Below the pieces are notes generated by a model. The model was not told where the DNA came from. It ran no database searches and was given only the letters and a program-made list of their open reading frames with translations. A DNA stretch of 64,000 bases. Source: an uncultured Pseudomonadales bacterium (GTDB lineage: Bacteria > Patescibacteriota > Microgenomatia > UBA1400 > PJMF01). Numbering within the stretch: the first letter of the stretch is position 1; every line of letters begins with the position of its first letter. Position numbers and translations under genes: made by a program. The stretch is taken from assembly GCA_964653045.1 (NCBI GenBank), contig CAZZBW010000002.1, positions 298 to 64,297 on the forward strand, in the 5' to 3' direction. Shown here piece by piece: positions 39,102 to 57,874 of this stretch.

Positions 39102-39293
39102 AGTGCGATTAGGATACCGTAATCGTAGTACCTTGTCAAACTCTAAGTCGAAAACACTGGCATTGCTCAGTTGCGATTGACCAAGGTAAAAATCAAAAGA
39201 AGTTGAGTTTTGACTTACTTGAATTTGGTTAGGACTGGCTGATAATTGCACTTCTGCAATTATCAGCCCCAATTCTTACATTAACCTTAAATA

Positions 39294-42026: not shown

Positions 42027-42180
42027 AATAACACCGTCTCACCCATACTTCGACCGCTTTCTTTTGATCCCGAATTCATTACAACTCGGATTTACAAAGA
42101 GGCTATCATCCTATCAAAATAAATTTTCAACTTTTTTTTCAAAACGGTAAATTAGTATAAAAATTACTTTAAGTTTCAAT

Positions 42181-42196
42181 TAGCAAAATTTTGCTA
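42181..42196. promoter_or_regulatory. 16-bp perfect palindrome TAGCAAAATTTTGCTA (copy 1 of pair, region 1)
   Basis: Read directly; second copy (TTGCAAAATTTTGCTA, 1 mismatch) at 42331-42346, 150 bp away. Confidence 0.5.
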
Positions 42197-42330
42197 ATAT
42201 ATTCTTAGTAATAAATTGACAGTAGCGATTCCATCGGTTATCTACTAATAGATCTTCTGACCAAAGTATTTATCAAAAATACAAATTGGCACTGATGGAT
42301 TGCATTTTTCGTTTCGTAGGTTGGGAAACA

Positions 42331-42346
42331 TTTGCAAAATTTTGCT
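42331..42346. promoter_or_regulatory. palindrome copy 2 of pair, region 1 (1 mismatch)
   Basis: ttgcaaaattttgcta. Confidence 0.45.
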
Positions 42347-42421
42347 ACAAGCTATTATACGAAAGATACGACAACCAGATAGTCAGAATATAGTTATAGG
42401 ACTCTATGTGACATCCAATAA

Positions 42422-43063
42422 TCAAACTTGTTTATAAAAAAGTAGACTTGAGTAGTTTTTTAGACCAAAAAGATCAATCGGACTGGTAACACACGCACGA
42501 TTAAAACCCATGGCGGTATGCCAAAGAATTGATGGGCAATTTGTTACCGGTCCAGTGGTAACTATTGAGAACAAATGTTTGATCTTAAGATTAAACAGTT
42601 CCCTTATCGATGCTTGAAAAAGCCCGGTCGCAATTCCTTTACCTTGATGTTCTTTGGCAACCACTATTTGGTGTAAAGCAATACTTTGCTCATCTTCAAA
42701 ATATGTTTGCTTAAGTTTTTGGTCAAACCAAATTATATTGTCCGCTTGTTCTGGGAAATATATTTCACGATTAATATCAATTAAACCCACTGGTTGATTG
42801 TTTTTTTCGTAAACATTGAAAATTGAGGAGTTAGTAATTCTAGCTTTGTGCTCTTTTTCAGTTTCGCTACTAATGAAAAAGCCATCATGTTGTATTTGAG
42901 TGCAATAACTTATATCATCAACTTTGCTTACGTCTAAAACAAATGCTTGCTTAAGTAACCAAAGCTTTTTTGAATCAGAAGGGAGCGCTTTTCTAATCAT
43001 ACATTCGACTTGCTTGTAATGAATGAAGTTGAGGTGTTCAGTATGACACTGATACGACTTCAT
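42422..43063 (-). CDS. GNAT-family N-acetyltransferase
   Basis: QIVVAKEHQGKGIATGLF acetyl-CoA-binding motif; true start may be an internal Met. Confidence 0.6.
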   Translation of the reverse strand: MKSYQCHTEHLNFIHYKQVECMIRKALPSDSKKLWLLKQAFVLDVSKVDDISYCTQIQHDGFFISSETEKEHKARITNSSIFNVYEKNNQPVGLIDINREIYFPEQADNIIWFDQKLKQTYFEDEQSIALHQIVVAKEHQGKGIATGLFQASIRELFNLKIKHLFSIVTTGPVTNCPSILWHTAMGFNRACVTSPIDLFGLKNYSSLLFYKQV

Positions 43064-43070
43064 TACATTT

Positions 43071-43097
43071 CTGCGCCCCGCCGCCGGCGGGGCGCAG
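43071..43097. terminator. GC-rich perfect palindrome / hairpin ctgcgccccgccg-c-cggcggggcgcag
   Basis: 13-bp perfect stem, extendable with flanking tacatt/aatgta; downstream of the 43123-44052 (-) gene; no clear U-tract. Confidence 0.4.
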
Positions 43098-43122
43098 TAA
43101 TGTATTTCATTAAACCAAACCG

Positions 43123-44052
43123 CTATTTGATTGGCGTCCCAATTTTCCTGACTGATTTTCGTTTAAGAACTCCAGCAAGAATTACCAGCGGAATTAATAC
43201 AGCACCATATACCACTACCCAAATCATAAACTGAGCAATTACAAACAGGTTGTCTAAAACCGAGTTGTATGCTCGATCGAGCTCGTCACGAAGATCGGGA
43301 CGAGCGCTGGGATCATAAACAGATTTTGACGATGCAGCTGAAATACTCAAGGTCGCATACTCAACTTGCTCAGTTTGAGCTTCATCTTGATCCTTAACTT
43401 GTTTGATCTGCTGATCTAAACGTTGAATCTCTAATTCAATCCGGCGTCTTTCCACCTCGGTTTTGGCCTCAACCAACTCAATTTCTTTGACAGCTTTCTG
43501 ATCTTCCAAATTGGCCAGTTGAGTTTTAATTGAGTCTACTCTACCAGTCACGTCAGTTGAGCTGACTTGCTGGTTTTCAATTGAACGCACGCCCTCAACA
43601 ATTTTGGCTGTAGCTTCATCAAATTTGTCGACAGGGACTTTGGCCGTCATGTAGCCAGTTTGATACCTACCATGGCTACCAGTTTGAAAGTTCATTACCC
43701 GACCATCAATACTCAGGATGTATGCCTTGGTTTGATTAAAGTAACCAGCCACATCATCCATTACTAAACTAAACGAACCGTAAACTTCATATGCTCTTTG
43801 TTCAACCTGGAGGGCATCACCAGCATCAGGGTAGTAAGGGGGATAATAAGGCTGACTTGGGAATCCTGGAGAAGTGTAGCCAATTTTATCAACGGCTTGA
43901 ATACCTGCACCTCCTTGATTTTCTGAAACCATGTACATATCCATTGACGAGGTACTGAGTTGATTGAGACCAAAACCACTCCGCAGAAGTACTGTCAAAC
44001 CAGAAAGAATGACTACAGCTAAGCCTAATACTAGCCACTTTTTTTTGGACAT
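43123..44052 (-). CDS. hypothetical membrane protein with central coiled coil (N-terminal and C-terminal TM helices; DUF4349-like architecture)
   Basis: TM helices at both ends, heptad-rich Q/E/K region; no catalytic motif. Confidence 0.4.
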   Translation of the reverse strand: MSKKKWLVLGLAVVILSGLTVLLRSGFGLNQLSTSSMDMYMVSENQGGAGIQAVDKIGYTSPGFPSQPYYPPYYPDAGDALQVEQRAYEVYGSFSLVMDDVAGYFNQTKAYILSIDGRVMNFQTGSHGRYQTGYMTAKVPVDKFDEATAKIVEGVRSIENQQVSSTDVTGRVDSIKTQLANLEDQKAVKEIELVEAKTEVERRRIELEIQRLDQQIKQVKDQDEAQTEQVEYATLSISAASSKSVYDPSARPDLRDELDRAYNSVLDNLFVIAQFMIWVVVYGAVLIPLVILAGVLKRKSVRKIGTPIK

Positions 44053-44058
44053 ATGAGT

Positions 44059-46305
44059 TTATCCTCCGTTGCTACCTTCTATACTATGAATATACTCCAT
44101 AATCTTTCCGGCGTTAACAGTCCGCGGCTTACTACCTTCGGCCGGTCCTACCATCCCAGCGGCGTATAACTGGTCTAAAATTCTGGCGGCGCGGTTGTAG
44201 CCCAAGGAAAAGCGGCGCTGAATCATGGATGATGAAGCTTTGTCCGAAGTGACAATTAGTTTGGCTACTTCGAGAAACAGTTCGTCTCGTTCGTCACTGC
44301 CACCTCCGCCACTGCCAAATTTGCCACCAGAAGTGACACTCGCCTCATACTTTGAGGTCACTTCCTCAAGATATTCCGGTTGTTGGCCTTGTTTTTTGAC
44401 GAACTCAATAAGACGTTTTGTTTCGTCATCAGATACAAAAGTACCCTGCAGACGAAGAGGCTTGGCTCGGTCGGGGGGAATAAACAACATGTCCCCCCGA
44501 CCGAGCAGTTTTTCCGCTCCTGGTGTATCCAAGATCACTCTAGAATCCATCATCGAAGAGACGTTGAAGGCGATTCTGGCCGGAATGTTAGCTTTAATCA
44601 AACCAGTCAAGACATCAACTGAAGGACGTTGTGTTGCCAAAAGCAAGTGAATTCCGACTGCCCGCGCCATCTGAGCAATTCTGGTAATATTTTCCTCTAC
44701 GTCAGCTGGCGCGAACAGCATCACGTCAGCCAATTCATCTACCACCACTACAATTCGGTACATGGCGGTATACCCAGCTAACTCATTGTATGCATCAATA
44801 TGCCGGACACCGGCAGCAGATAGTTTTTTGTACCGCTCCTCCATCTCGTGGGTAGTCCACTTGAGTGAAGAGACCACCTGTTTGGTCTCGACAATTACTG
44901 GAGTCAACAAATGCGGTATGTTGTTATAACCACTCAGCTCCACCCGCTTAGGATCAACCAAAATCAATCTCACTTCGTCTGGAGAAGCCCGAAACAAAAT
45001 TGAGCATAAGAAACTATTGAGTGCGACTGACTTACCTGAGCCAGTCGCACCAGCGATCAACATGTGTGGCATGCGCGAAATATCGACCGCGTATGGTCTG
45101 TTGGCAACATCAATGCCCAGCGCTACCAACAATTTTGACTGATTTTGTTGCATTTGCGGCGAGCTGAGCATTTTGCGCAGCGTTACAAATTTGGCAGTGT
45201 GATTCGGCACTTCAATACCGACTAGTGAACGTCCAGCGATTGGTGCTTCGATCCTGATTTGACCAGTCGGAGCAGCTAAGGCTAGAGCCAAATCAGTCGA
45301 TAATCCAGTAATTTTTGATAGTTTTGTACCCCTAGTAATTTCCAGCGCGTACTGGGTGACAGAAGGTCCAAAATTGACTTCTTTAACTTTCGCTTTAATG
45401 CCAAACGAATCCAGGGTAGCCTCGATCATATCGGCGTTTTGGGAAACATCGCCCCGATCAGCCTCACCGCCATCGCTTTGATCCAATAAGCTCAAAGGAG
45501 GTAATTGCCATGGCCGATTTTGACCAGTCGGGACTGAGCTATTGGCGGAAGAAATAAGTGCCCCCACCTCTTCATCTGGCTCAATTAATGGAGGAATCGT
45601 AACCTTCTTTTGAGTCTTGGTTTGTTTAATTTCTTGATCAGAGTCAGGCTCCGCATTGCCAGGATTAATGGTAAATTTCGGCTTATTAATTAGCTGGGGC
45701 ATTTTAATTCCGGGTAAACTAAATCTTTTTTTCTCGTTTTTATCTTCATTATTCATATTTGGCAAAACTGGTTGGGTTTCTTTATTAGGCTGAGCCTTAC
45801 CTTTTAGAATACCAATTAATTCAAAGAACTCCTGCAACTTCATTTGTGCCATGATTACCATGCCGACAATAATTAATGTTAGAGAAAAAACCACTGCGCC
45901 GGCTGCAGAAAGCAGCCGGCCTAAATTTTGGTTGGTTGCCAAACCAACCTCACCATTACGAAACAAACTCATCCAACCCAAGAAAATCATGATTGTGCCC
46001 AATAGTACGTTGGGTTTGGCGGCTGACCATTTAAACTGGAGAAAGATTAATCCACTGGAAATAAATATAAATGGCAAGAACATTAACGCCAAACCCAGTT
46101 TTGAGATTAGAAAACTATTAATGCTACTTAACCAAACTCCCTGACCAGAAAACGAGATTAAAACTAACAAACCAATTGAGATCAACAGCACTCCAACAAT
46201 GGTATAAAGCGTGTGAGCTTTAAGATCGAGCTTGAATGGCAGTTTCGAACGTTTCCGCCTTTTTCCCATATTATAGGATATATCATACTTTCGGCTTGCG
46301 TTCAA
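44059..46305 (-). CDS. ftsK: DNA translocase FtsK/SpoIIIE
   Basis: N-terminal TM helices, AGATGSGKS Walker A, C-terminal gamma winged-helix (SSSMIQRRFSLGYNRAARI). Confidence 0.9.
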   Translation of the reverse strand: MNASRKYDISYNMGKRRKRSKLPFKLDLKAHTLYTIVGVLLISIGLLVLISFSGQGVWLSSINSFLISKLGLALMFLPFIFISSGLIFLQFKWSAAKPNVLLGTIMIFLGWMSLFRNGEVGLATNQNLGRLLSAAGAVVFSLTLIIVGMVIMAQMKLQEFFELIGILKGKAQPNKETQPVLPNMNNEDKNEKKRFSLPGIKMPQLINKPKFTINPGNAEPDSDQEIKQTKTQKKVTIPPLIEPDEEVGALISSANSSVPTGQNRPWQLPPLSLLDQSDGGEADRGDVSQNADMIEATLDSFGIKAKVKEVNFGPSVTQYALEITRGTKLSKITGLSTDLALALAAPTGQIRIEAPIAGRSLVGIEVPNHTAKFVTLRKMLSSPQMQQNQSKLLVALGIDVANRPYAVDISRMPHMLIAGATGSGKSVALNSFLCSILFRASPDEVRLILVDPKRVELSGYNNIPHLLTPVIVETKQVVSSLKWTTHEMEERYKKLSAAGVRHIDAYNELAGYTAMYRIVVVVDELADVMLFAPADVEENITRIAQMARAVGIHLLLATQRPSVDVLTGLIKANIPARIAFNVSSMMDSRVILDTPGAEKLLGRGDMLFIPPDRAKPLRLQGTFVSDDETKRLIEFVKKQGQQPEYLEEVTSKYEASVTSGGKFGSGGGGSDERDELFLEVAKLIVTSDKASSSMIQRRFSLGYNRAARILDQLYAAGMVGPAEGSKPRTVNAGKIMEYIHSIEGSNGG

Positions 46306-46330
46306 GCAGGAGTTGGATTAAACACTTTAT

Positions 46331-47995
46331 TTACGCCTTAAAGCTCACAATGTTCGCAATTACCAATGGCTCTCTCTTGATAATTTTATACAACTTACGC
46401 ACCAATCTTTTTTCAATAGTTTGACTCAGCTCTTTGTCAGAAAGTTTTTTATTCTGTGAAATAGCCTCACGCACTGTTTGCTTGATAAACTCGATCACCT
46501 CATCAGCCTGCTGCATAAAAACAAAGCCACGGGAAATCAGCTGAATTTGGTCTAGCTTCAGCTCACCTTTGACTCTTGGCACAATTACTGCCACAATTCC
46601 TGCATCTCCGAGCTTGAGCCGATCTGACAAAACTACTGGACCCACATCCCCAATTCCCAATCCGTCAACCGTAGTAGGTCGCAGCTCAAACTTGGGACCA
46701 ATACTCGCTCCATCCTGAGTGAATACCACTGTCTCGCCACTTCTCGGTCGCAAGATTTGTTCTCCTGAATAACCCAAGGGTCGAGCAATATTTATGGCAA
46801 ATAAATACCTATGCCGATCGGCGCCGCCGATCGGCATCACCAGTTTCGGCTTCAGCAGCTCAACTACTTGTCGCTGCTCTTTCTTACTCGCATGTCCAGA
46901 ATGGTGCAAGCCCGGCTCAATACTGGGGTACAACACTCGAATATCATTGCCTGCAAGCTCATCAATCGATTGGTAGTATGGCACCTCATTGCCGGGAATC
47001 GCATCGGCGGAAAACACCACCGTGTCATCAGATTTGATTTGCAAAGCAGGATGCTCACCAAAAATTGCGCGAACGAGTGATGAGCCCTCTTGCCCTTGGC
47101 TTCCGGCAATGATTAAACACACTTGGTCATCAGGCAAAGTATCAAGATGCTTTTTATCAACAATTTGTTCTTGACGAACCTTAAGTTTACCCAGATCTCT
47201 AGCAACTCTGACATTTTGTTCAACTGATCTACCCACAAATACGACCTTCCTACCCAATTTTTGGGCCACGTCAACGGCTTGTTGAATCCGGTGAATATGC
47301 GAACTCATCAGAGTTAAAATGAACTTTCCTTTGGTATTAGCCATCAGTTTTTCAAACTCAGCCCCTATAGTCGATTCTGGTTCAGCCGGTTCATTTTTTT
47401 CCACGCGCAAACAGTCAAGCAACACACATAAGACGCCTTGGTCTCCCAATTTTGCCAAACTATCTAAATCACTTACTGCCCCATCGACAGGTTTTGGGTC
47501 AATTTTAAAATCACTCCCATGATAAATTGCCCCGACTGGTGTGGTGATTAACAGATGACGTGTATCAGGAACCGAGTGAGTCATGTTGTATGACGTAAAA
47601 CGGAAACTGGGACTCAAGCTAACTTCTTTGGTCGCTTCAATCACACGAAATTCCACCTCGCGATTCATCTCACTTACTCTTTCTTGGGCAAAACCAATCG
47701 TTAGGGGCGAACCAAAAATGGGAAACTCCGGTAGGTGCGGCAGCACATATGGCAATGCCGCGATGTGATCGTCGTGACCATGAGTTAAAATCATCCCTAC
47801 AATTTTTTTACCCGCTTCGAGTTTTTTTAACAAAGGAGTAATGTCAGGAATGAGAATGTCAATTCCTGGCATATAAGTAGTGGGAAACCCAATCCCACAA
47901 TCAACTAACAAGATTTCGTCTTCGTATTCATACAGATACATATTTTGGGTGACGTTGCCCATCCCACCAAGAGGCAGAAGTTGTAAATTTGACAT
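46331..47995 (-). CDS. rnj: ribonuclease J
   Basis: Metallo-beta-lactamase HxHxDH (LTHGHDDH), beta-CASP and RNase J C-terminal domains; 554 aa. Confidence 0.9.
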   Translation of the reverse strand: MSNLQLLPLGGMGNVTQNMYLYEYEDEILLVDCGIGFPTTYMPGIDILIPDITPLLKKLEAGKKIVGMILTHGHDDHIAALPYVLPHLPEFPIFGSPLTIGFAQERVSEMNREVEFRVIEATKEVSLSPSFRFTSYNMTHSVPDTRHLLITTPVGAIYHGSDFKIDPKPVDGAVSDLDSLAKLGDQGVLCVLLDCLRVEKNEPAEPESTIGAEFEKLMANTKGKFILTLMSSHIHRIQQAVDVAQKLGRKVVFVGRSVEQNVRVARDLGKLKVRQEQIVDKKHLDTLPDDQVCLIIAGSQGQEGSSLVRAIFGEHPALQIKSDDTVVFSADAIPGNEVPYYQSIDELAGNDIRVLYPSIEPGLHHSGHASKKEQRQVVELLKPKLVMPIGGADRHRYLFAINIARPLGYSGEQILRPRSGETVVFTQDGASIGPKFELRPTTVDGLGIGDVGPVVLSDRLKLGDAGIVAVIVPRVKGELKLDQIQLISRGFVFMQQADEVIEFIKQTVREAISQNKKLSDKELSQTIEKRLVRKLYKIIKREPLVIANIVSFKA

Positions 47996-48020
47996 AATAA
48001 ACCTTTCTTAAATCATGTAA

Positions 48021-48833
48021 TTATTTTTTATTAAAAAGCTGGATATTTTCTCCCCAACGTTGATACTTGACATGGCCTACAAGTATGTCCAAAGCGCTGC
48101 TTATGCTGTAAAACTTGTAATCCAAAAAGGCAAATACAAAAGCTCCACCAAAATACGATAAGCTTGACCAGTAGAAAAGATACTCAGCACTAATGGTTGG
48201 CGAGCCAAAATAGTAACCAATCAAATGAGCGCTGAAAAATACGCCTATTCCAAGCTTGACTAATCTACTCAAGGTCAGACGTTTTTGTTGTAAAGGCTCA
48301 GAAATTAATAGAAGTAGATAAAAACCAATTCCAACCAAAAATGATCCCAGCATTGCTATCGTGAATTTAAACGGCGATAGGACGAAATCGAACGGTGCGA
48401 ATAAATTGGCTAGAGCAAGAATAGTCAGAATCAACATACCACCCATGAATAAAACCACGTGCGACAGCCATAAATGCATATATTCAGAGTCGTGAAAAAT
48501 GTCATAAAGAGGATCAAAGTTTTTCAAATGAAACGTCTTGGTTAAGGAATGCATGCTGAAAAAGGCGTAAATATAAAGGAAGATTAGGCTAAAAAGTGTG
48601 TCAGCAAAAAATACCTGTTTATCACTCAAAACTAAATCAGGGCTGGTGGTCAAGATTACAAAGAAAATAGTTTTGATCCACACAAAAACCAGTGGTGCAA
48701 ATACAAAATTATATAAAAATTGCACTAGATCAAAGTTTAAAACGTACTTTCTACCTTGAAATCGATACAAAATTAAAACGGAAAACACCACAATTACCGG
48801 GATGACAAATAAGATTAATTCTGGTTTTAACAC
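48021..48833 (-). CDS. hypothetical polytopic membrane protein
   Basis: About seven predicted TM helices; no motif. Confidence 0.4.
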   Translation of the reverse strand: MLKPELILFVIPVIVVFSVLILYRFQGRKYVLNFDLVQFLYNFVFAPLVFVWIKTIFFVILTTSPDLVLSDKQVFFADTLFSLIFLYIYAFFSMHSLTKTFHLKNFDPLYDIFHDSEYMHLWLSHVVLFMGGMLILTILALANLFAPFDFVLSPFKFTIAMLGSFLVGIGFYLLLLISEPLQQKRLTLSRLVKLGIGVFFSAHLIGYYFGSPTISAEYLFYWSSLSYFGGAFVFAFLDYKFYSISSALDILVGHVKYQRWGENIQLFNKK

Positions 48834-48858
48834 TCCGCTTATCTTATCACACCAACAA

Positions 48859-49485
48859 TTATTGAAGTGCCTCTCGCACTATCTCAATTTGGTTTTGCTT
48901 GGTTACTTCCTCTTTCACCCAGTTTAATACCGGAATAATTTTCTCAAAATCGTTGACGAACGCGGTTTTCAACTGAGTGGATCGAAGTGCCGCGGCCGGG
49001 TGGTACATAGGTAAAACATAAACTGGTTTCTCCTGCCACACCACCCGATGCACCCGGCCGTGAACTTGAGAAACTCGCGCGTCGGGAAGGAATTTTGCCA
49101 TACTAAAACGTCCCAGCGTCACAATTAGCTGCGGATCGATCAGCTCAATCTCGCGATTAAGAAATGGGCGAAAAGCAGCGATCTCTTCTGGCAGAGGATC
49201 TCTGTTGTCGGGCGGTCGGGCTTTGACAATGTTCGAGATATAAGTTTGCTCTGGTGGCAAACCAACTTCAGTCAGGGTTTTACGCAGCAACTGCCCCGAC
49301 CGCCCCACAAACGGCCGACGCTGCACATGCTCGTGGTACCCCGGCGCTTCTCCAATAAACATCACTTCGGCTCGGGCATCGCCCTCGCCATGCACAATGT
49401 CAGTTACTTTTGTCACCAACGGCAAATTAGTTAAATTTTCCTCCAACAACTCCTTCAGCTCGCTTAAGTTATCTGCCACAATCAC
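48859..49485 (-). CDS. uracil-DNA glycosylase, family 4
   Basis: GEAPGYHE (motif A), Fe-S cysteines absent or variant, HPAAALR motif B-like. Confidence 0.75.
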   Translation of the reverse strand: MIVADNLSELKELLEENLTNLPLVTKVTDIVHGEGDARAEVMFIGEAPGYHEHVQRRPFVGRSGQLLRKTLTEVGLPPEQTYISNIVKARPPDNRDPLPEEIAAFRPFLNREIELIDPQLIVTLGRFSMAKFLPDARVSQVHGRVHRVVWQEKPVYVLPMYHPAAALRSTQLKTAFVNDFEKIIPVLNWVKEEVTKQNQIEIVREALQ

Positions 49486-49529
49486 AGTTATATCTTAGCA
49501 GACATTTCCACCGTCTCTTTTTCAGCTTG

Positions 49530-49545
49530 TAGCAAAATTTTGCTA
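49530..49545. promoter_or_regulatory. 16-bp perfect palindrome TAGCAAAATTTTGCTA (copy 1, region 2)
   Basis: 45 bp upstream of the divergent UDG start; partner copy at 49679-49694. Confidence 0.5.
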
Positions 49546-49678
49546 AAAGTATTGGTCTGACCGAGCAAAATATATGATAACTAAGCTCTGTTTTTTGTAG
49601 TTACTTACTATTTAAATCAGGAAAATTAACAATTGAGCGATGTGATGATCGTAATGTTGGATTGAATACTCTTATTTA

Positions 49679-49694
49679 TTAGCAGAATTTTGCA
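49679..49694. promoter_or_regulatory. palindrome copy 2, region 2 (TAGCAGAATTTTGCAA, 2 mismatches)
   Basis: 149 bp from copy 1; followed at 49715-49741 by GGTTGAAATGAGGTTGAAACCTAGTTT. Confidence 0.4.
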
Positions 49695-49882
49695 AATTAA
49701 TTGGGGCAGTTTTCGGTTGAAATGAGGTTGAAACCTAGTTTAATAAAGAGCAGTTTGCTCAAATTTAGGGTAATTGCAAAAAAATGATTCCGAAACTTAA
49801 AAAGTCGACGATCCACCGGGCTAGATTAACGGTTGGGAAAGACAATGATGGGATTGCGCGAAATTAAATTTCCCTCAAGGTA

Positions 49883-49911
49883 CTTGACAAAGAAGGAGAG
49901 GAAGAAGAAAA
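49883..49911 (+). promoter_or_regulatory. conserved promoter module TTGACA-N17(GA-rich)-GAAAAT (copy A)
   Basis: ttgacaaagaaggagaggaagaagaaaat; same module at 54383-54411 and 57378-57406. Confidence 0.55.
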
Positions 49912-49951
49912 TACACATAGTATCAAAAACAGATCGTTGAAAGGCTACCTT

Positions 49952-50413
49952 ATGCCTACAGATGAGCAAAATAAATTTACTCCCGAAACAGCCCATAATC
50001 TTGGTGATAGAGAGAACGCAGCGCCTGGTGATTTTCCAGACATTGCCAAACTTTTTGAAGACTTAGAACCCGATCCCAATTTAACACTAGAGCAAGTTGA
50101 AAAGATTGGTCAAACTATCGTAGATATTCAACATGTTATTGAAGAAAAATCAAAAGGAAAAAATCCTTTAGACGATAATGGCGCTGAAAAGTTGGCAAAT
50201 ATGATTGCAGCACAAATCGGTATATCCCCAGTTCCAAGATTGGAAGTTAAATCCCAAACCCCGCAAATTATAGCTTTCCATGGTCAAAAAATCCGAAAAT
50301 GGGAAGTTGGATTTACTACCTATAGTGGTCAAGCAAAATTAATGTTTGTCAATACCAAAGGGTCGTGGAGTATATACTATGTTAGACCCGACGTCATGAG
50401 GCAACAACAATAA
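49952..50413 (+). CDS. small acidic hypothetical protein (module-A cargo)
   Basis: ATG at 49952 preceded by conserved RBS GAAAGGCTACCTT; the ORF track uses an upstream TTG at 49937. Confidence 0.5.
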   Translation: MPTDEQNKFTPETAHNLGDRENAAPGDFPDIAKLFEDLEPDPNLTLEQVEKIGQTIVDIQHVIEEKSKGKNPLDDNGAEKLANMIAAQIGISPVPRLEVKSQTPQIIAFHGQKIRKWEVGFTTYSGQAKLMFVNTKGSWSIYYVRPDVMRQQQ

Positions 50414-50480
50414 AACGAAGCTAAAAAGGTTTTAATTTTTAGATAAACGTCGCGAAGATTATTGATTTGTCCTATCCCTA

Positions 50481-51575
50481 TTAATACTGCGGTAAGAAAA
50501 TTTTCCGGTTTTGCTCGTTCACCACAATTTGTGGGTAACCTTTTTCGACGATAATGCGCGCTGCCTTGCGCACCGCGCCTTGCATAGTGCGCTGCAGTGA
50601 ACGAATCCCCATATCATAACCTAGCGGCCGGATCACGGCGGGCCAAACGTTTTCCTCAATAATAAACTGTTCTGGTTTGAGTCCGGCCGCTTCCAGCAGT
50701 CCCGGCAACACATACTTTTGCGCGATCACCATTTTTTCATGATCGGTGTAGCTAGGCATCGAGATTTTCTCTAATCGATCTAACACCGCGGTCACAATTT
50801 GGGTGGTATTGTTCGCAGTCGCGATAAAAATTGCGTGTGACAAATCAACTGGGTAATCAATATAGGTATCGCGAAATGCATTATTTTGCGCCGGATCAAG
50901 CAACTCAACGAGCACACCCATAATATCCCGATTGGCTTCTTCAGCGCTTCTGTCAATCTCGTCGAGCAAAATCACCGGATTACGAACGCCAGCTTCACAA
51001 ATTCCCTTGATCACCCTGCCCGGCTCAGCGCCCAGAAGTAACCGAGAATCACCACGTAATTCCTTGGCACCACCCATGCCGCCAAACGGGATACGAACCA
51101 TTTTGCGATCTAAAGCCTCAGCCAACGAATAGGCAAAAGTGGTTTTACCAGTACCCACCAGACCAACTAGTAACAACACTGGTGCTCGAAATTCAGTATC
51201 GCCAAACTGCTCTTTACGCATTTTCAACACCGCCACATACTCAAGAAACCGATCTTTGACCTCTTGCATGCCAAAATGATGTTTTTCGAAAATTTGTCGG
51301 GTAATTTCAAGATCTAATCTGTCTGGAGTTTCTTTTTCCCATGGAATTTTTAGCACCCAATCGATGAATTTTGAGACTTTCTCATACTTTTCGTCATAAC
51401 TACCTAACTCAACCGACCGCTCCAGCGCCACAATGTCTTTTTTCAATTTGTTAGACATTTCTTCAGGCAAGCCCTGCGCCTGGGTCACGCGTACCTTCAG
51501 GTCCTCTATCTCTTGCTGGAGAATTTGTTTGTAATCAGACATAGGGCAGTACTTTTCTTCAGTCCAGTGTAACAA
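50481..51575 (-). CDS. Lon-like AAA+ ATPase domain protein lacking both the Lon N-domain and the protease domain
   Basis: Colinear with the Lon ATPase module (VKDRFLEYVAV..LLLVGLVGTGKTT..ILLDEIDRS..LLDPAQNNAFRD..LDRLEKI) but only 364 aa. Confidence 0.7.
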   Translation of the reverse strand: MLHWTEEKYCPMSDYKQILQQEIEDLKVRVTQAQGLPEEMSNKLKKDIVALERSVELGSYDEKYEKVSKFIDWVLKIPWEKETPDRLDLEITRQIFEKHHFGMQEVKDRFLEYVAVLKMRKEQFGDTEFRAPVLLLVGLVGTGKTTFAYSLAEALDRKMVRIPFGGMGGAKELRGDSRLLLGAEPGRVIKGICEAGVRNPVILLDEIDRSAEEANRDIMGVLVELLDPAQNNAFRDTYIDYPVDLSHAIFIATANNTTQIVTAVLDRLEKISMPSYTDHEKMVIAQKYVLPGLLEAAGLKPEQFIIEENVWPAVIRPLGYDMGIRSLQRTMQGAVRKAARIIVEKGYPQIVVNEQNRKIFLPQY

Positions 51576-51590
51576 AAGTGACGAATGTTG

Positions 51591-52517
51591 TCACTGCGAT
51601 AACAGTATTTGATCTTTAGTTAATAAACCAGTTTTCGCACCATATGATTGAATTACTGATGTGGAGTTGCGTAAACCTAGTTGCACACACTCATCGATCG
51701 GCATTTTCCACAGATAACCAGCCACAAAACCTGAGGCAAATGCATCACCCGCGCCCGTGGTATCCACGGCGCGGGCAGCTAGACTGCTGAAGTGTTGCTT
51801 CGCTCCTTTGAAAAACACCCTACCTCCCTTCGCCCCATTGGTTACGACTACTATCGGAATCTGTGTCAAAAGGATTGAGTGGAGCGACTTCAGCATTGCC
51901 CACTCCTTCTCATTCACAAACAGAATCTCCACCGGCAGCGACACCAGATCAAATTGACCGGCCGCAAGTAAATTAAGCTCTGCCGTACCAGGATTCCAAG
52001 ATAAGTGCCGAATTCCCTGACGAAAGTGGAAAATTTCCTTTAGCGTGCTGTGTCTACCAGAAATGCTACTCAAATGCACCCAGTCTGCCGACTTCAATAA
52101 CGCTTCTGGCAAATCGGGAGGATCCAACAACGAGGCTGCACCCCGATGTACCATCACCGTCCGGTCTCCACTTGGACCAACCAAAATGACAGATCCACCG
52201 GTTTGTTCTCGCCTTTCACGAATCATTTTTGAAACGTCAACTTCTGTTTTGATCAAATCACTCATCACGATCTGGGCAAAATCGTCTTTTCCCAACTCGC
52301 TAACTAAAATTGCATTGAAATCTAATCTAGCAAAACCTACTGCAGTATTACTCCCACCCCCTCCAGTGCTTACAGTCAGACCATCGAGTTCCAATTTGTC
52401 ACCATAGGTTTGACAAAGTAACAGGCCATCGTCTGTTGTGTGTAACTGAAACTGGAGTGAAGAAATAAAGATATCAACCAAACTTGAACCAATACTAAGA
52501 ATGTTTTGTTTTGTCAT
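51591..52517 (-). CDS. PfkB-family carbohydrate kinase (ribokinase-like)
   Basis: DTTGAGDAFASGF C-terminal motif and N-terminal GG motif. Confidence 0.8.
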   Translation of the reverse strand: MTKQNILSIGSSLVDIFISSLQFQLHTTDDGLLLCQTYGDKLELDGLTVSTGGGGSNTAVGFARLDFNAILVSELGKDDFAQIVMSDLIKTEVDVSKMIRERREQTGGSVILVGPSGDRTVMVHRGAASLLDPPDLPEALLKSADWVHLSSISGRHSTLKEIFHFRQGIRHLSWNPGTAELNLLAAGQFDLVSLPVEILFVNEKEWAMLKSLHSILLTQIPIVVVTNGAKGGRVFFKGAKQHFSSLAARAVDTTGAGDAFASGFVAGYLWKMPIDECVQLGLRNSTSVIQSYGAKTGLLTKDQILLSQ

Positions 52518-52520
52518 TAT

Positions 52521-53153
52521 TTATTCCTTATGGGGCAATTTAGCCCGGTCGCGCAACTCTGTTTCAAACTCTTCCAAAGCTGTCTTCGTTTCTTCCTGGT
52601 TTTTGACAATTTTGTAGATATTTTGCTCTTTTTCTCCAATAAAAAAATTATTATTGATTACTCGTACCACCTCGTGCCAAAATTCACCGTACAAAATGAT
52701 CGGCTTGTGATTGCCATAGTTAAGATGACTGAGTAACCATGCTGTGGTCCATTCACTCAGCGTGCCTGTCCCACCTTGAAAACAAATAAACGCGTCCGCT
52801 TGATCAATTAATCCAAACATCCGTTCAATGTAATTGGCAGTTTTGATCTCCAAATCAACAATGTTGCTAGGCGCTCGCCCCTCAAACTCTGGCATATCGT
52901 GTGGTTGAAATGTTACAGCTATCGTTTTTCCCCCTGCCGACTCAGCACCAAGAGTGGCAGCCTCCATTGTCCCGGGACCGCCACCATTGACCACAGCTAT
53001 GCCGTTGTATGCTAGGTAGCGAGCTACTTTGAATACTTCTTGATAAAGAGGGTGCTGCCTATCTACATCTGCGCTGCCGAAGATTGCCACCGCATCGATA
53101 TTGCAGTGCTGCTTGGGTGCTGGAACCACTACACGAGTTTTCATCTGGCTCAC
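52521..53153 (-). CDS. LOG-family (TIGR00730) nucleotide 5'-monophosphate nucleosidase
   Basis: GGGPGTMEA and QGGTGTLSE motifs. Confidence 0.8.
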   Translation of the reverse strand: MSQMKTRVVVPAPKQHCNIDAVAIFGSADVDRQHPLYQEVFKVARYLAYNGIAVVNGGGPGTMEAATLGAESAGGKTIAVTFQPHDMPEFEGRAPSNIVDLEIKTANYIERMFGLIDQADAFICFQGGTGTLSEWTTAWLLSHLNYGNHKPIILYGEFWHEVVRVINNNFFIGEKEQNIYKIVKNQEETKTALEEFETELRDRAKLPHKE

Positions 53154-53175
53154 TTTTAACTAACTTAATAATGTT

Positions 53176-53874
53176 TCAACATACCCGACTCATCTCTAAA
53201 TAGGTAGAAGCAAAATTGTCTGATTTCCACAATAAGCTCCCAACTGCCACGCTATCCACACCGAGTTTTTTGAGTTTTTTCATTTTGGCGATGTTGATTC
53301 CTCCATCTACTACAATCTGATAATCAAGCTGGTTTTTAGCTCGATACTCAACCACCTGATCAATTAACGACCAAATGTGTTCAGAAAATTTTTGGCCCTG
53401 TTGCCCCGCCTCAACACTCATTACTTGAATTACATCTAACTTGCTCAAAACTTCTTCATCGATCGAGTCAAGCGGTGTATATAAATCGAGGGACAAGCCT
53501 ACTTGCCAACCTTGATCTCGCACCAACTTGACGTAATTCTCTTGACTGGACATCTTCTCAATTTGAGCAATTACCACTCTGATGGGTAATTGAGCTTTGA
53601 AATCGATTAACTCGTACACATAATCCATTGGCTCTTCCACCATCAGGTGAAAATCAGCATTAAGTTGATCGAAGTCCAAGAAAGCATAATCAGCTGGCGT
53701 TAATGTTAGATTGTCAGCATAAAAACCATCAATAATATCAATTTGGACTGTTTGGAGTCCGGCTTGGGCAGCCAGCTGCAGCTGGCTGGCTGCTTCTGTC
53801 ATATCCTCAGTCAAAATCGAGGGTAAAATTGCTAGTTTTTTTTTATCAGTTTTTTTCTTCTTCATACTTACCAA
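53176..53874 (-). CDS. rpe: ribulose-phosphate 3-epimerase
   Basis: PSILT.D...IDIIDG, HLMV, VMSVEAGQQGQKF, VDGGIN blocks. Confidence 0.7.
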   Translation of the reverse strand: MVSMKKKKTDKKKLAILPSILTEDMTEAASQLQLAAQAGLQTVQIDIIDGFYADNLTLTPADYAFLDFDQLNADFHLMVEEPMDYVYELIDFKAQLPIRVVIAQIEKMSSQENYVKLVRDQGWQVGLSLDLYTPLDSIDEEVLSKLDVIQVMSVEAGQQGQKFSEHIWSLIDQVVEYRAKNQLDYQIVVDGGINIAKMKKLKKLGVDSVAVGSLLWKSDNFASTYLEMSRVC

Positions 53875-54298
53875 TTTCAGCCACTCGCCGCAGATACTTC
53901 TCTTCTGTCAACTTGGGTGCATCAAGAAATACTGAAACTAACTCTTTGGCTTGATCCAACTCAAAATAATCTGAAGCGAGAGAAAGGACATTGATATGAT
54001 CATGTTGCTTGGCGTGCTCTACTTGATCTACAGACCAACCTTGGGCGGCACGAACTCCTCTGACTTTGTTGGCAGCAATGTTGACTCCCACGCCTGAACC
54101 GCAGATTAAAATGCCGAGAGCATCGGTGGCGGAGGCGGTCGCCTCCGCCACCACAATCGCCACATCAGGATAATCGTCATCCGGATCAAACTCTTCTGGT
54201 CCTAAATCAACCACAGTAACCTCTAATTCTTCTAACCATGGTTTGAGCTCGTTCTTGAGCTCAAACCCCCGATGATCCGCGCCAATATAGATTGTCAT
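53846..54298 (-). CDS. rpiB: ribose-5-phosphate isomerase B
   Basis: MTIYIGADHRGFELK... and ILICGSGVGVNIAANK RpiB/LacAB signatures. Confidence 0.85.
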   Translation of the reverse strand: MTIYIGADHRGFELKNELKPWLEELEVTVVDLGPEEFDPDDDYPDVAIVVAEATASATDALGILICGSGVGVNIAANKVRGVRAAQGWSVDQVEHAKQHDHINVLSLASDYFELDQAKELVSVFLDAPKLTEEKYLRRVAEIGKYEEEKN

Positions 54299-54382
54299 AG
54301 CAATTTACAGTGTATCAAACTTGACCCCGACTTTGCTAGAGCTTCATCGGGATCTCGTTCAATCATGCCCTTCTTGACTTAC

Positions 54383-54411
54383 TTGACAATAAAGCAGAAG
54401 CAGAAGAAAAT
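54383..54411 (+). promoter_or_regulatory. conserved promoter module TTGACA-N17-GAAAAT (copy B)
   Basis: ttgacaataaagcagaagcagaagaaaat. Confidence 0.5.
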
Positions 54412-54442
54412 AACGTGAGTATCAAGTCATGAAAGGTTTACT

Positions 54443-54766
54443 ATGGCAGAAGCATTTTTTGAAGCACCTGAAGAAATAAGTAGTGGGGTCAAAGAAAGAC
54501 CACCAACAGATACTGAAAATCCGGATAACGATGAACTATTAGTAGATCCAAACCAAGAATTGTTGAGTTCTGCACTCAATATTGTCGAACAACTTTCCAA
54601 AGACGGCAGAATTGGCGAATTAGCCCAAATTGCCAATGCGGCTACAGGAAAAATAAAACAAGCAATAGCTGAGGCTGAAGCGATGCACCACGAGGTGAAA
54701 CAACAAGGTGGTGGAGGTCAAAACAAATTACGGCAATTACTTGGACGGATTAGTGGTAGCAGATAA
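54443..54766 (+). CDS. small acidic hypothetical protein (module-B cargo)
   Basis: Conserved RBS GAAAGGTTTACT before the ATG; no domain. Confidence 0.5.
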   Translation: MAEAFFEAPEEISSGVKERPPTDTENPDNDELLVDPNQELLSSALNIVEQLSKDGRIGELAQIANAATGKIKQAIAEAEAMHHEVKQQGGGGQNKLRQLLGRISGSR

Positions 54767-54819
54767 AAATCTAAATCTTCGTCTGCTCTTACAAGTCAAT
54801 TGCGTTTAACACAACAAAA

Positions 54820-54870
54820 AAAATCCCCCCTACTGCGCCCCGCCGTTAGCGGGACTTCATAGGGGGGATT
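54820..54870. terminator. rho-independent terminator hairpin (strong for the minus-strand gene, possibly bidirectional)
   Basis: aatcccccct...aggggggatt stem with nested GC hairpin cccgccgttagcggg; A8 on one side gives a U8 tract for the minus-strand transcript. Confidence 0.6.
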
Positions 54871-54893
54871 TAAGTTTCAAAATAATTTATAAA

Positions 54894-55091
54894 TTATTTT
54901 TTCTTCAACACAGGCATGTTGGTGCGCTTGGTCTCCATGACGGCGTAACCAGCGGGAACGGCGTCAAGTGAGCCACTGCGAACATCGCGGGCGAAGAAAT
55001 AAATTCTTTGTTTGCGACCATTTTTCAGGGTCACATCTTTGAAATGCAGGTAGTAAACCTGTTTTTTAGCATTGGTATAGCTGTATGCCAT
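54894..55091 (-). CDS. small hypothetical protein
   Basis: 65-aa ORF immediately followed by a strong terminator. Confidence 0.35.
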   Translation of the reverse strand: MAYSYTNAKKQVYYLHFKDVTLKNGRKQRIYFFARDVRSGSLDAVPAGYAVMETKRTNMPVLKKK

Positions 55092-55169
55092 ACGTGTCCT
55101 TTCTTTAGGATGCTACTTACTACTCTATTTATAGCACACTTGAGGTGTGTTGCAACAGCCAATCTGGAG

Positions 55170-55718
55170 TTATTCGGATACCTCTTTACCGACCCTACCC
55201 TTGAGGACCACGTTACCCATTTCTTCACCCAAGCTCATTCCTCTCGTGATCATCACATCAACCGGAAGCTGTTCTTCAGAAAAAGCTCCACTACCAATCA
55301 GTCCTCCTTTTCCCTCAATTAGGGCAAAAGCTTGCTTCGGCTCCAGAGCACCTTCAGGCTGCAACCACACATAAAAACTATCGCTCTGGTTGACGCCACT
55401 GGCGATGACGCTTAATTTGACTTTACTATCCTCGATTTCATAGCGTAACACTCCATTGAGCGGTTGAACGGGTGATGGTTTTTGGGTCACCTTATCTTTT
55501 GTTTCGGTGACGTTTGGAGTTACTTCTTCTAGTGGTACTGTCGTATAATCTCCAACACCACTCAACGCTTCGCTCAACTCCTCTTCGGACAGATTCTCAA
55601 TCTCGATACCTTCACCATAGTCAGAAATTTCACCCCGACGGTCATACCACCTGGTGATCAGAAAGACTACAATGACAACTACTAAGGCAGGGAAAATATA
55701 TGGTGTAAGTTTATTCAT
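55170..55718 (-). CDS. hypothetical membrane-anchored protein
   Basis: N-terminal TM helix; no motif. Confidence 0.4.
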   Translation of the reverse strand: MNKLTPYIFPALVVVIVVFLITRWYDRRGEISDYGEGIEIENLSEEELSEALSGVGDYTTVPLEEVTPNVTETKDKVTQKPSPVQPLNGVLRYEIEDSKVKLSVIASGVNQSDSFYVWLQPEGALEPKQAFALIEGKGGLIGSGAFSEEQLPVDVMITRGMSLGEEMGNVVLKGRVGKEVSE

Positions 55719-55801
55719 AGTTTGATGTTATTTAGCACTCCTTTGATCTATATTCTGCCTAATTAATTTCAGATGTCAATGACTAATAGGAAAATCAGTA
55801 G

Positions 55802-56068
55802 TTATTCGGCTTCAATCGGCCAGACTTGATTGCCAGTTCCAGTGTCAATTACAACTATGGCTGCAGTTGGACAACTCTGGGCGGCCAACAGTTTCGTCTC
55901 GTCGTCGTCTCCTTCTTGACTGATGACTCGAGCAATTCCCTCTTCATCCAGCTCAAACACACCGCCGGCTATCGCGACGCAGCTGGCCGCACTAATACAT
56001 TTGTCCCTGATCACAGAAACTTGGTACTTACCAATTTGCTTGGTGGTGACGTTGGGCTGATCTGACAT
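55802..56068 (-). CDS. small ferredoxin (single Fe-S cluster type)
   Basis: CISAASC...C...CP cysteine spacing; 88 aa, acidic. Confidence 0.55.
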   Translation of the reverse strand: MSDQPNVTTKQIGKYQVSVIRDKCISAASCVAIAGGVFELDEEGIARVISQEGDDDETKLLAAQSCPTAAIVVIDTGTGNQVWPIEAE

Positions 56069-56124
56069 ATTGTTCCTTTGGTTTCGTTAATTAATATTGA
56101 GTATTTAATTTAAAATAATCGCAG

Positions 56125-56904
56125 CTAAAAGAATTTCTCTTGATGGATGTGGGCTGGGTCAATTCCTTTTCCTGTCAAAATTTTGCTCACGTCTTGGATC
56201 ATGTTCGCCCTGCCACACAGGTAAAATCCCGTGGCAGGGCGAAACTCATGCGCCAAGACCAAATCGGTCACTCTACCAGTGCTGAGCGTCCACTCTGGGT
56301 GGGGTTGCGACAATGTAGGATAAAAATGGAAATTGGGTAATTGCTCGACTAATCCCTGAAACTCATCTAACCAAAATAAATCATTTGCGTTTCGCATCCC
56401 CCAGTAGAGCACAATCTCTCGTTGGTCTTGGCGCACTTGTACCAAATCCAAGATCATGCTGTGCATCGGTGCGATCCCAGAGCCAGTGGCAATAAACACC
56501 AACGCTGTTTCGCTCTGGTCGGCTATCACAAACTGACCCATCGGCCCAATCCCCCGAACGCTGTCACCGAACTTCAGATTATCTAAATACTGTGAACCAA
56601 TCCCACCAGGTGAGCGATCTATCAGTAGCTCAATTCCGTGTTGAGTGGCTGGCGAAGAGGTAATCGAGTAAGATCGCCGGTGCCCAACATCGTCAACCTG
56701 AATCGAAACATACTGGCCAGACTTAAAACCAAGCTCATGTGGCTCTGTCAGCTCAAAGTGATACTCCGCAAACTTGTCATTAAACTCAATTTTTTCTTCA
56801 AATTTGGCGGTAAACTGCTTGGGTGGATTGAGTACAGGATTCATGTGCCAAGAGTATAACATTGTCTGACAAGGGTTAGTAAAATTATGAGGTGACGCTG
56901 TCAC
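56125..56904 (-). CDS. FNR-family FAD/NAD(P)-binding oxidoreductase (ferredoxin reductase-like)
   Basis: RRSYSITS (RxYS FAD motif), GSGIAPM NAD(P) motif. Confidence 0.7.
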   Translation of the reverse strand: MTASPHNFTNPCQTMLYSWHMNPVLNPPKQFTAKFEEKIEFNDKFAEYHFELTEPHELGFKSGQYVSIQVDDVGHRRSYSITSSPATQHGIELLIDRSPGGIGSQYLDNLKFGDSVRGIGPMGQFVIADQSETALVFIATGSGIAPMHSMILDLVQVRQDQREIVLYWGMRNANDLFWLDEFQGLVEQLPNFHFYPTLSQPHPEWTLSTGRVTDLVLAHEFRPATGFYLCGRANMIQDVSKILTGKGIDPAHIHQEKFF

Positions 56905-57008
56905 ACTGAGTCCCGATGCAAATCGGGATCGAAGTGTGAGAAAACAGCCAATCTATCATCCAATTCTTTCATTCGGCTTACATAAGTTAAATTGGGTTTC
57001 CTTTGTTG

Positions 57009-57024
57009 TAGCAAAATTTTGCTA
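57009..57024. promoter_or_regulatory. 16-bp perfect palindrome TAGCAAAATTTTGCTA (copy 1, region 3)
   Basis: Partner perfect copy at 57159-57174. Confidence 0.5.
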
Positions 57025-57158
57025 AATCTTTAAGCTAATTGAGCAAGGTAAATTGGAAAGCAGTGTTAGTCTTTTGTAACTGACTGATAGTTAGATCTGG
57101 AGTGTTCGTAAGCAGACGACAAGTAGAACCATGCATTAAATTTAGCTTTTATAAATTG

Positions 57159-57174
57159 TAGCAAAATTTTGCTA
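57159..57174. promoter_or_regulatory. 16-bp perfect palindrome TAGCAAAATTTTGCTA (copy 2, region 3)
   Basis: 150 bp from copy 1; followed at 57194-57220 by GGTTGAAACGAGGTTGAAACCTGGTTT. Confidence 0.5.
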
Positions 57175-57377
57175 ATTGATAGGGATGAAGTTTGGTTGAA
57201 ACGAGGTTGAAACCTGGTTTGGTGCCAACTAGATGGATCAAATTTGAGGTGATAACAACAAAGTGACACCGAAACTCAAAATTTAATTAATCTACCGTTC
57301 TAACTCAATGGCTGAAAAACCAGCTTGATCCCGACTTCGCCAAAGCTCCGACGGGGTCTCGTGCTTTTTCTATTTTT

Positions 57378-57406
57378 CTGCTCGAACTTGACAAAGAAGA
57401 AGAAGA
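57378..57406 (+). promoter_or_regulatory. conserved promoter module TTGACA-N17(GAA repeats)-GAAAAT (copy C)
   Basis: ttgacaaagaagaagaagaagaagaaaat. Confidence 0.55.
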
Positions 57407-57457
57407 AGAAGAAAATACAGGGAGTATTTGTTTGGTTTTGATATTGAAGGGATACAA

Positions 57458-57874
57458 ATGAGCGAAGAACAAACAACGGGTCGGGATTTAGAAGCGAGAT
57501 TAAAAGAAGGTGAAACCCGAGAAGCTTCATCCACACCAGAAATTGTCATTAATGCGGCTGATTTACCCTTGCCTGAGCCAGAAATAACATTTGACGAAGA
57601 GGGAAATGTAGAATCCGAAAAAGTCGTAGTTTATCGCTTCGACATTACGAGGTTGGGAGAAGTAATGGATCGTTTAATCTATCATGCTGATAAAATTACG
57701 GGAGCATTGGATTACGGTAATTGGAGATTAGATAAAGAAAAAATCAAACCCGATAGCAGTGGGTGGGTTGAAATATCAGTCGTTAGAAACTCTGCTCCTC
57801 AAGAAAATCCTGAGCTCAGTAAATCTGTCGATGATCTTCGAAGATATTTTGCAAATTGGATGACAACAAACTAA
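57458..57874 (+). CDS. small acidic hypothetical protein (module-C cargo)
   Basis: ATG at 57458 preceded by GAAGGGATACAA; the ORF track uses the TTG at 57428. Confidence 0.5.
   Translation: MSEEQTTGRDLEARLKEGETREASSTPEIVINAADLPLPEPEITFDEEGNVESEKVVVYRFDITRLGEVMDRLIYHADKITGALDYGNWRLDKEKIKPDSSGWVEISVVRNSAPQENPELSKSVDDLRRYFANWMTTN

Follow-up and report, generated by a model that had tools for sequence, protein, structure and literature searches.

Paired palindromes, portable promoter-like units and orphan genes among the housekeeping genes of a Candidate Phyla Radiation bacterium

The stretch of DNA analyzed here, referred to throughout as the window, comprises 64,000 nucleotides of contig CAZZBW010000002.1 (assembly GCA_964653045.1, positions 298 to 64,297 of the forward strand) from an uncultured bacterium of the Candidate Phyla Radiation (CPR). 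Among its genes are those for FtsK, RNase J, a family-4 UDG, a Lon-like AAA protein, PfkB, LOG, RPE and RpiB, together with Suf genes. DNA matches assign the window to Candidatus Woesebacteria. Its sister genome is the metagenome-assembled genome (MAG) AMR_MDS_2586 (DAOOPX01), which is about 90% identical to the window at the nucleotide level; GCA_029565865.1 is a further sister MAG, and the source contig is also present in Logan run SRR8925802. Our subject is a 16-bp palindrome, TAGCAAAATTTTGCTA, that occurs in pairs in three intergenic regions of the window, and the associated promoter-like element, which precedes small open reading frames (ORFs) for acidic proteins. Both had been noticed in an earlier reading made from the letters of the DNA only (the sequence-only reading), the claims of which are taken up below where results bear on them.

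Anatomy of the palindrome pairs and the downstream module

Perfect copies of TAGCAAAATTTTGCTA stand at 42181, 49530, 57009 and 57159, with a copy carrying one mismatch at 42332 and a copy carrying two at 49680. These six paired copies are the only matches with two or fewer mismatches in the whole window. When up to three mismatches are allowed, the count rises to nine against an expectation of 0.97, and none of 100 shuffles reached that number. All six are intergenic, inside the three largest intergenic gaps of that part of the window, in agreement with the four perfect and two degenerate intergenic copies of the sequence-only reading. The symmetry of the palindrome is that of two arms, TAGCA and TGCTA, around an A/T centre. 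The copies, with the first and second member of a pair denoted P1 and P2, are as follows.

42181..42196, no strand: region 1, copy 1, perfect TAGCAAAATTTTGCTA
42332..42347, no strand: region 1, copy 2, TTGCAAAATTTTGCTA, one mismatch, 151 bp from copy 1
49530..49545, no strand: region 2, P1, perfect, 45 bp upstream of the start of the divergent UDG gene
49680..49695, no strand: region 2, P2, TAGCAGAATTTTGCAA, two mismatches, 150 bp from P1
57009..57024, no strand: region 3, P1, perfect
57159..57174, no strand: region 3, P2, perfect, 150 bp from P1

The pairing at a near-constant distance described by the sequence-only reading stands, with amendments to its figures: start-to-start spacings are 151, 150 and 150 bp in regions 1, 2 and 3 rather than 149-150 bp, and the second copies that it placed at 42331 and 49679 each lie one base higher. 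The paired-palindrome architecture is real, non-random, repeated, modular and restricted to one lineage.

A fourth pair (L036) is found in the sister MAG, where it lies divergent to a tRNA-23S rRNA operon with its members 151 bp apart, and is followed by the same hairpin, the same promoter-like element and another acidic orphan ORF. Across the four paralogous pairs, the spacing is therefore 150, 150, 151 and 151 bp, whereas ungapped identity among the 134-bp interiors is only 25-46%, with the value for random sequence of that composition estimated at roughly 30%. Only two comparisons of interiors exceed this background, one between regions 2 and 3 and one between region 1 and L036, the latter in inverted orientation. 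Because the interiors are close to random while the distance between their ends is held, we take the 150-151-bp spacing to be under constraint, with the two sites apparently acting together at a fixed distance; this is the strongest argument for a joint function of the pair. Of the five palindrome positions that are polymorphic among strains in region 2, four belong to the central A/T stretch and the fifth to an arm, where TGCAA replaces TGCTA; this pattern is as expected for a helix-turn-helix dimer that would read two half-sites. The recognition unit is likely to be TAGCA-N6-TGCTA.

The layout of a module is P1, 134 bp, P2, a leader of 110-250 nt, a hairpin (H1), TTGACA-17(GAA-rich)-GAAAAT, AGTAT, a Shine-Dalgarno sequence and a small acidic ORF. 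In two copies only, the leader opens with the tandem repeat GGTTGAAA-N3-GGTTGAAA. The corresponding features of the window are listed here, together with a second type of hairpin (H2).

49715..49735, plus strand: tandem direct repeat of region 2, GGTTGAAA-N3-GGTTGAAA, period 11
49884..49912, plus strand: promoter-like element of ORF1, TTGACA-17(AAGAAGGAGAGGAAGAA)-GAAAAT, a copy without the H1 hairpin
54320..54359, plus strand: H1 hairpin of ORF2, CTTGACCCCGAC..TCGGGATCTCG, directly after which the ORF2 cassette insertion starts
54383..54411, plus strand: promoter-like element of ORF2, TTGACA-17-GAAAAT, without palindromes
56900..56939, no strand: H2 hairpin of region 3, GTCACACTGAG-TCCCGAT-GCAA-ATCGGGA-TCGAAGTGTGA, between P1 and a divergent FNR-like gene
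57194..57214, plus strand: tandem direct repeat of region 3, GGTTGAAACGAGGTTGAAACC
57324..57362, plus strand: H1 hairpin of ORF3, CTTGATCCCGAC..GACGGGGTCTCG, followed by a T-rich run
57388..57416, plus strand: promoter-like element of ORF3, TTGACA-(AAG)5AA-GAAAAT, with a 17-nt spacer

As the sequence-only reading had it, the direct repeat GGTTGAAAYGAGGTTGAAACC follows the second palindrome in regions 2 and 3; 49715 and 57194 are its only occurrences in the window, where none would be expected. The stretch of about 125 nt at 49680-49802, which holds the region 2 repeat near its start, is 74-75% identical to its region 3 counterpart. A 42-nt promoter block, ACTTGACAA..GAAGAAAAT..AGTAT, recurs at 49882, 54381 and 57386 with 76-88% identity, and the three GAA-rich TTGACA-N17-GAAAAT elements, including the third without palindromes, were located where that reading had placed them. 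Its estimate that the promoter lies "about 150" nt past the direct repeat did not hold, the measured distances being 169 and 194 nt; from the start of the second palindrome, TTGACA is 204 bp away in region 2 and 229 bp away in region 3.

The hairpin and promoter-like element form a unit of about 110 nt that can be aligned across six loci with unrelated ORFs, consisting of H1 (CTTGAYCCCGAC..TCGGGRTCTCG), a T-rich stretch, TTGACA-17(GAA-rich)-GAAAAT and AGTAT; over the full 100 nt, identity falls below 80% for some pairs of loci. Ordinary promoters of this genome, upstream of tRNA and transfer-messenger RNA (tmRNA) genes, are of the TTGACN/TATAAT type, which makes it plausible that the cassette element is a σ70 promoter with a perfect −35 element, a 17-nt spacer and a weak −10 element.

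Hairpins of the H2 type, GTCACACTGAG-TCCCGAT..ATCGGGA-TCGAAGTGTG, recur within modules in either orientation (window 56900-56939, L057 5085-5130 and L036 1672-1700). They are small dispersed repeats resembling repetitive extragenic palindromic elements and have the CCCGA/TCGGG stem in common with H1.

Region 1 differs from the other two in having neither a promoter nor an ORF, and it lies between convergent genes, as had been stated. Read on the minus strand, it is a paralog of the L036 module, with a homologous interior in the inverted orientation and one further recognizable feature:

42067..42091, minus strand: H1-like hairpin of region 1, GATCCCGA..TCGGAT

Region 1 thus appears to be a truncated module in which the palindromes are still intact, and the suggestion of the sequence-only reading that it is a decayed module is borne out by these remains.

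Orphan genes, their turnover and their phylogenetic range

The three promoter-like elements of the window each precede a small ORF.

49952..50413, plus strand: ORF1, 153 amino acids, an acidic strict orphan
54443..54766, plus strand: ORF2, 107 amino acids, an acidic orphan
57458..57874, plus strand: ORF3, 138 amino acids, acidic

The predicted isoelectric points are 4.5-5.2, and BLASTP detects no similarity among the three products, so that the earlier description of small, acidic and unrelated-looking proteins is upheld. No Pfam, PHROG or NCBIfam family was found for any of them. An all-against-all BLASTP comparison of ten cassette ORFs linked only the orthologs of ORF3 with one another, a word-index search returned ORF1 and ORF3 each as its own sole match, and a full HMMER search with ORF3 against 1.8 billion representatives gave low-complexity matches only. 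The AlphaFold model of ORF1, predicted from the single sequence, had a pLDDT of 44.8 and was unusable.

Comparison with relatives, which the sequence-only reading had proposed as a check, is informative as to how these genes came to be where they are. In L061 (72% UDG identity) and in L078/L079 (66%), the region is one unbroken co-directional operon in which the Lon-like AAA gene leads directly into UDG, and an NTPase gene into FNR. In the clade of the window, each module with its small ORF is placed antisense at such an operon junction. At the ORF1 site, the roughly 90% identical strain L057/L037 has an unrelated ORF of 203 amino acids instead, and this same ORF occupies the site in all relatives of 94-96% UDG identity for which contigs were fetched. 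The ORF2 cassette (about 54360-54820) is absent from the L057/L037 sister strain, which has 60 bp where the window has 531, with the breakpoint directly after H1. ORF3 has an ortholog in the sister strain with only 45-46% identity over 83-84 amino acids, whereas the proteins flanking the cassettes are 82-99% identical between the same strains. The modules and their ORFs thus appear as insertions into a conserved housekeeping operon, and the orphan genes as swappable cassettes of fast turnover. The hairpin/promoter junction is a breakpoint hotspot. Where the sequence-only reading had offered "a small regulon or paralogous cassette family", replacement, absence and hyper-divergence between strains favour the cassette family, and the single regulon is weakened, the promoter being separable from the palindromes.

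Several further observations concern these junctions. In L058 (2000-2830; JGI Ga0209717_1015891), the region 3 module is intact through H1 and the T-run, and an ORF for a transposase-like protein of 459 amino acids, with unrelated genes, stands in place of the promoter and ORF3. GC-rich hairpins with CTGCGCCCCGCC..GGCGGGG recur at gene ends (window 43071-43097 and 54824-54869); they are probably bidirectional intrinsic terminators, and one of them closes the ORF2 cassette on its right. Woesebacteria at a greater distance (64% UDG identity) have other antisense orphan ORFs at the same junctions (L077 8912-9901; L076 4029-4457, 5166-5603 and 9095-9829), and therefore antisense cassette insertion is a habit of the wider group; one of these strains has an ORF of the HTH_38 transposase type, and both the palindromes and the GAA promoter are absent from these strains. 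The longer contigs of sister strains (L067, L068, L069, L071 and L072) all stop within ftsK, about 1.5 kb into its sequence, and this suggests that the segment there is repeated or differs between strains.

The palindrome pairs have a narrow range. When 185,579 species genomes and 241 million metagenome records were scanned for the pattern, pairs of this type came only from the species-level clade of the window, in activated sludge and digesters. The other 53 genome matches of the pair scan were unrelated repeats that share the core GCAAAATTTTGC, such as AGAGACGCAAAATTTTGCGTCTCT in Bacteroidota, and were discarded. The relatives examined at 72% and at 64-66% UDG identity lack palindrome pairs.

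A putative two-operator element and the alternatives

Beyond the anatomy, the constrained spacing, the insertion and turnover of the cassettes and their narrow phylogenetic range, all of which this analysis documents, we propose a mechanism that we hold tentatively and would put somewhat short of an even chance. The palindromes would be operators for one dimeric bridging protein and, lying upstream of orphan cassettes that have their own promoters, would serve there for control or insulation. The hairpin-plus-promoter unit would be the cassette's own σ70-type promoter and would travel with it. Dimers of a single DNA-binding protein would occupy both palindromes and bridge them, closing a loop of about 150 bp between the cassette promoter and the divergent remainder of the interrupted operon. 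Such a loop could control or insulate the cassette promoter, the remainder of the operon or both, and the cassette genes themselves would be accessory genes of fast turnover.

A number of findings weigh against this proposal. Between strains, the palindromes show no more conservation than the sequence around them: 5 of their 32 positions vary, compared with about 10% of those in the flanks. A search for phasing found no 10-11-bp A/T periodicity in the interiors, and 150-151 bp is not a whole number of 10.5-bp turns. Region 1 has good palindromes, yet no gene begins to the left or right of it. The genes next to the modules include none for a helix-turn-helix regulator, the −10 element of the cassettes is the weak GAAAAT, and scans with consensus promoters placed none consistently within the loop or adjoining it. 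P2 and the cassette promoter are not at a fixed distance, being separated by 196 to about 300 bp, and the unit also occurs free of palindromes: at ORF2, and in the L064-66 lineage, whose UDG identity is 72% and which lacks the palindrome altogether. Because the unit is found without palindromes and the distance between the two varies, the promoter does not appear to need the palindromes as a fixed component, and the idea of one simple regulon looks too tidy.

Some of these same observations would be better accommodated if the pair were an architectural or silencing element, with a bent A4T4 core and narrow minor groove at which a nucleoid-associated or xenogeneic-silencing protein nucleates or bridges, or if it were a topological insulator between a strong cassette promoter and the adjoining operon, rather than a set of operators for a dedicated regulator. 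The core GCAAAATTTTGC is a model A-tract bending sequence (PMC2879501), and a literature search on the palindrome brought back only model oligonucleotides for DNA bending. The pairs always accompany recently inserted DNA, those of region 1 are intact without an adjoining gene start, and a variable distance to the promoter suits an insulator better than a classical operator. We nevertheless consider this reading unlikely: conservation extends to the TAGCA/TGCTA arms and is not confined to the A/T centre, which points to sequence-specific recognition, the interiors are without A/T phasing, and there are just six sites in the 64 kb.

The (GAA)n tract between the −35 and −10 elements raises the question of phase variation, in which slipped-strand mispairing would make the cassettes contingency loci and the palindromes would be secondary. 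In three modules the spacer is taken up by an uninterrupted (AAG)5-6 tract, the genes downstream are hypervariable, and the spacer of the L064-66 lineage, at 11 nt rather than 17, is shorter by exactly two GAA units. One scaffold also breaks within the tract, as a run of N at L064 5440-5520 with the flanking sequence duplicated on both sides; this run is either an assembly artefact or a hint of heterogeneity in repeat length. Against this, all 14 copies from the clade of the window (four loci, several strains and samples) have exactly 17 nt, and all three assemblies of the L064-66 lineage have 11. Several tracts are, moreover, interrupted (GGAGAGG, GCAGAAGCA) and therefore stabilized. Phase variation is thus distinctly unlikely in our judgment.

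It is quite improbable that the palindromes are relics of mobile DNA, whether they are taken as the ends of a miniature inverted-repeat transposable element (MITE) of about 166 bp, as the sites at which an inverton recombines or as att-like scars left behind by cassette insertion. The flanking repeats are identical and present in at least four copies in the genome, the interiors of region 1 and L036 are inverted homologs of each other, other strains have transposase genes inserted at the same junctions, and the boundary of the ORF2 cassette coincides with H1. Yet the interiors are not conserved between subfamilies, target-site duplications are lacking, and no recombinase is encoded adjoining any module. 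Orthologs of regions 2 and 3 are all collinear, with no inversion in at least eight assemblies; perfectly symmetric sites would in any case give a recombinase no orientation, and the swapped segment begins downstream of the palindromes rather than at them.

Least probable is an RNA element, with either the 134-bp interior or the stretch between P2 and H1 forming a structured small RNA or riboswitch-like leader and H1 serving as terminator. In favour of it, H1 is stable and is followed by a U-rich run in region 3, and one stem has a compensatory change between regions 2 and 3 (TTTAGG/CTTAAA versus TTTGAG/CTCAAA). Against it, Rfam 15 finds nothing in the modules at gathering or permissive thresholds (E up to 5). 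When the leader and the four interiors were folded on either strand, the z-scores reached only −0.4 to −1.9, and the alignment fold has covariation in just 1 of its 22 predicted pairs. No promoter was found at P2, the leader is wholly different between the two module subfamilies and most H1 copies lack the U-run.

A phage origin found no support: viral contigs, when scanned, yielded no copy of the promoter, and the palindrome turned up in them just 12 times, each time singly and never in a pair. For an inverton, only one orientation of the inter-repeat segment was found among the region 2 and 3 orthologs; for a MITE, interiors are near random between subfamilies and duplications are missing. 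Integron cassettes are resembled in the hairpin at one boundary, but the present units have their own promoters, are dispersed singly and have no integrase that could be found. We do not regard the modules as integron cassettes, MITEs or invertons because the defining features of each were checked and are lacking.

Relation to known systems and significance

Pairs of operators that act by looping are well known, with separations of about 114 bp for gal OE/OI, 92 bp for lac O1/O3 and 93 bp for NagC. The pairs described here resemble them in that a single dyad-symmetric site is present twice, at a constant separation within the range 100-200 bp, and the sequence in between can vary freely. They depart from them in that the distance to the promoter is variable, no promoter is placed in the loop and one pair has no adjoining gene start. 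They may be likened to looping operator pairs, a class of which membership could be claimed only with the protein and the promoter geometry in hand. Operators in the form of tandem direct repeats are also familiar, from the CtsR operator A/GGTCAAA-NAN-A/GGTCAAA and the pho boxes of the OmpR/PhoB type. GGTTGAAA-N3-GGTTGAAA is likewise an 8-mer at an 11-bp period, but its sequence is another one, the promoter follows it only after about 170-190 bp, and just two of the four modules have it.

As for the cassettes, phage morons are independent promoter-ORF-terminator units inserted between conserved genes. The cassettes are similarly self-contained transcription units with an orphan gene, missing at the same junction in a close relative; their context, unlike that of morons, is the chromosomal housekeeping genes of a CPR bacterium and not a prophage. 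Putative mobile promoters, segments of 50-110 nt conserved before non-homologous genes both within a genome and across related genomes, have been described by Matus-Garcia et al. (2012; PMC3488235). The 76-88% identical 42-nt core, in a hairpin-promoter unit before unrelated ORFs at six loci, is comparable, the yardstick for such segments being 50-100 nt at 80% identity or more, but here hairpin, promoter, 5′ untranslated region and ORF travel together, antisense at fixed junctions of one operon, and some copies have an additional module joined to them on the upstream side. A repeat tract in the spacer between −35 and −10 is known from the vlp, maa2 and vmm-type promoters of mycoplasmas (PMC2268961). 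The likeness lies in several genes with a common promoter, a spacer repeat and divergent coding regions in a small-genome, host-associated bacterium, and the difference in a trinucleotide repeat, the lack of repeat-number polymorphism within the clade and products without lipoprotein or signal sequences. The locus combines known kinds of element, namely operator pairs, a mobile promoter and moron-like cassettes, in a phylum from which, as far as limited literature searches show, such elements have not been described.

A more far-reaching proposal, which we regard as possible but doubtful, is that Woesebacteria may have a previously undescribed class of micro-cassettes, each an orphan gene with a portable hairpin-(GAA)n promoter that inserts antisense at set junctions within housekeeping operons and is passed from strain to strain. 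One lineage would have brought them under a dedicated 150-bp two-operator switch, and their acidic products may be rapidly evolving factors for host interaction or anti-defence in an episymbiotic way of life.

Two other features of the window deserve mention. Upstream of both tRNA-Ser genes is a conserved element of about 60 nt (3936-3996 and 12897-12956) that repeats the 5′ end of the tRNA (GGAAGCGTCGCA ... TAGCGGTCAATTG) with a GC-rich hairpin of 37 nt inserted, and is followed in one copy by a TATAAT-like box. It could be a tRNA-derived promoter or leader, or a pseudo-5′-half. Adjoining the tmRNA gene (36074-36495) is an accessory island at 36495-39272 that encodes a restriction enzyme of the NgoPII type, a C5 cytosine methylase and a ParE/Phd toxin-antitoxin pair.

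CPR bacteria are uncultivated and have tiny genomes, and to our knowledge almost nothing has been learned of how their transcription is controlled or their accessory genes turn over. The compact cis-element TAGCA-N6-TGCTA, present twice at 150 bp, is usable as bait for a regulator, and the putative strong promoter, being portable, could become a genetic part for CPR organisms. The locus is also a clear case of the replacement of orphan genes at the strain level, at fixed hotspots in an otherwise rigid operon. Replacement of this kind points to genes under diversifying pressure, possibly from interaction with a host or with phage.

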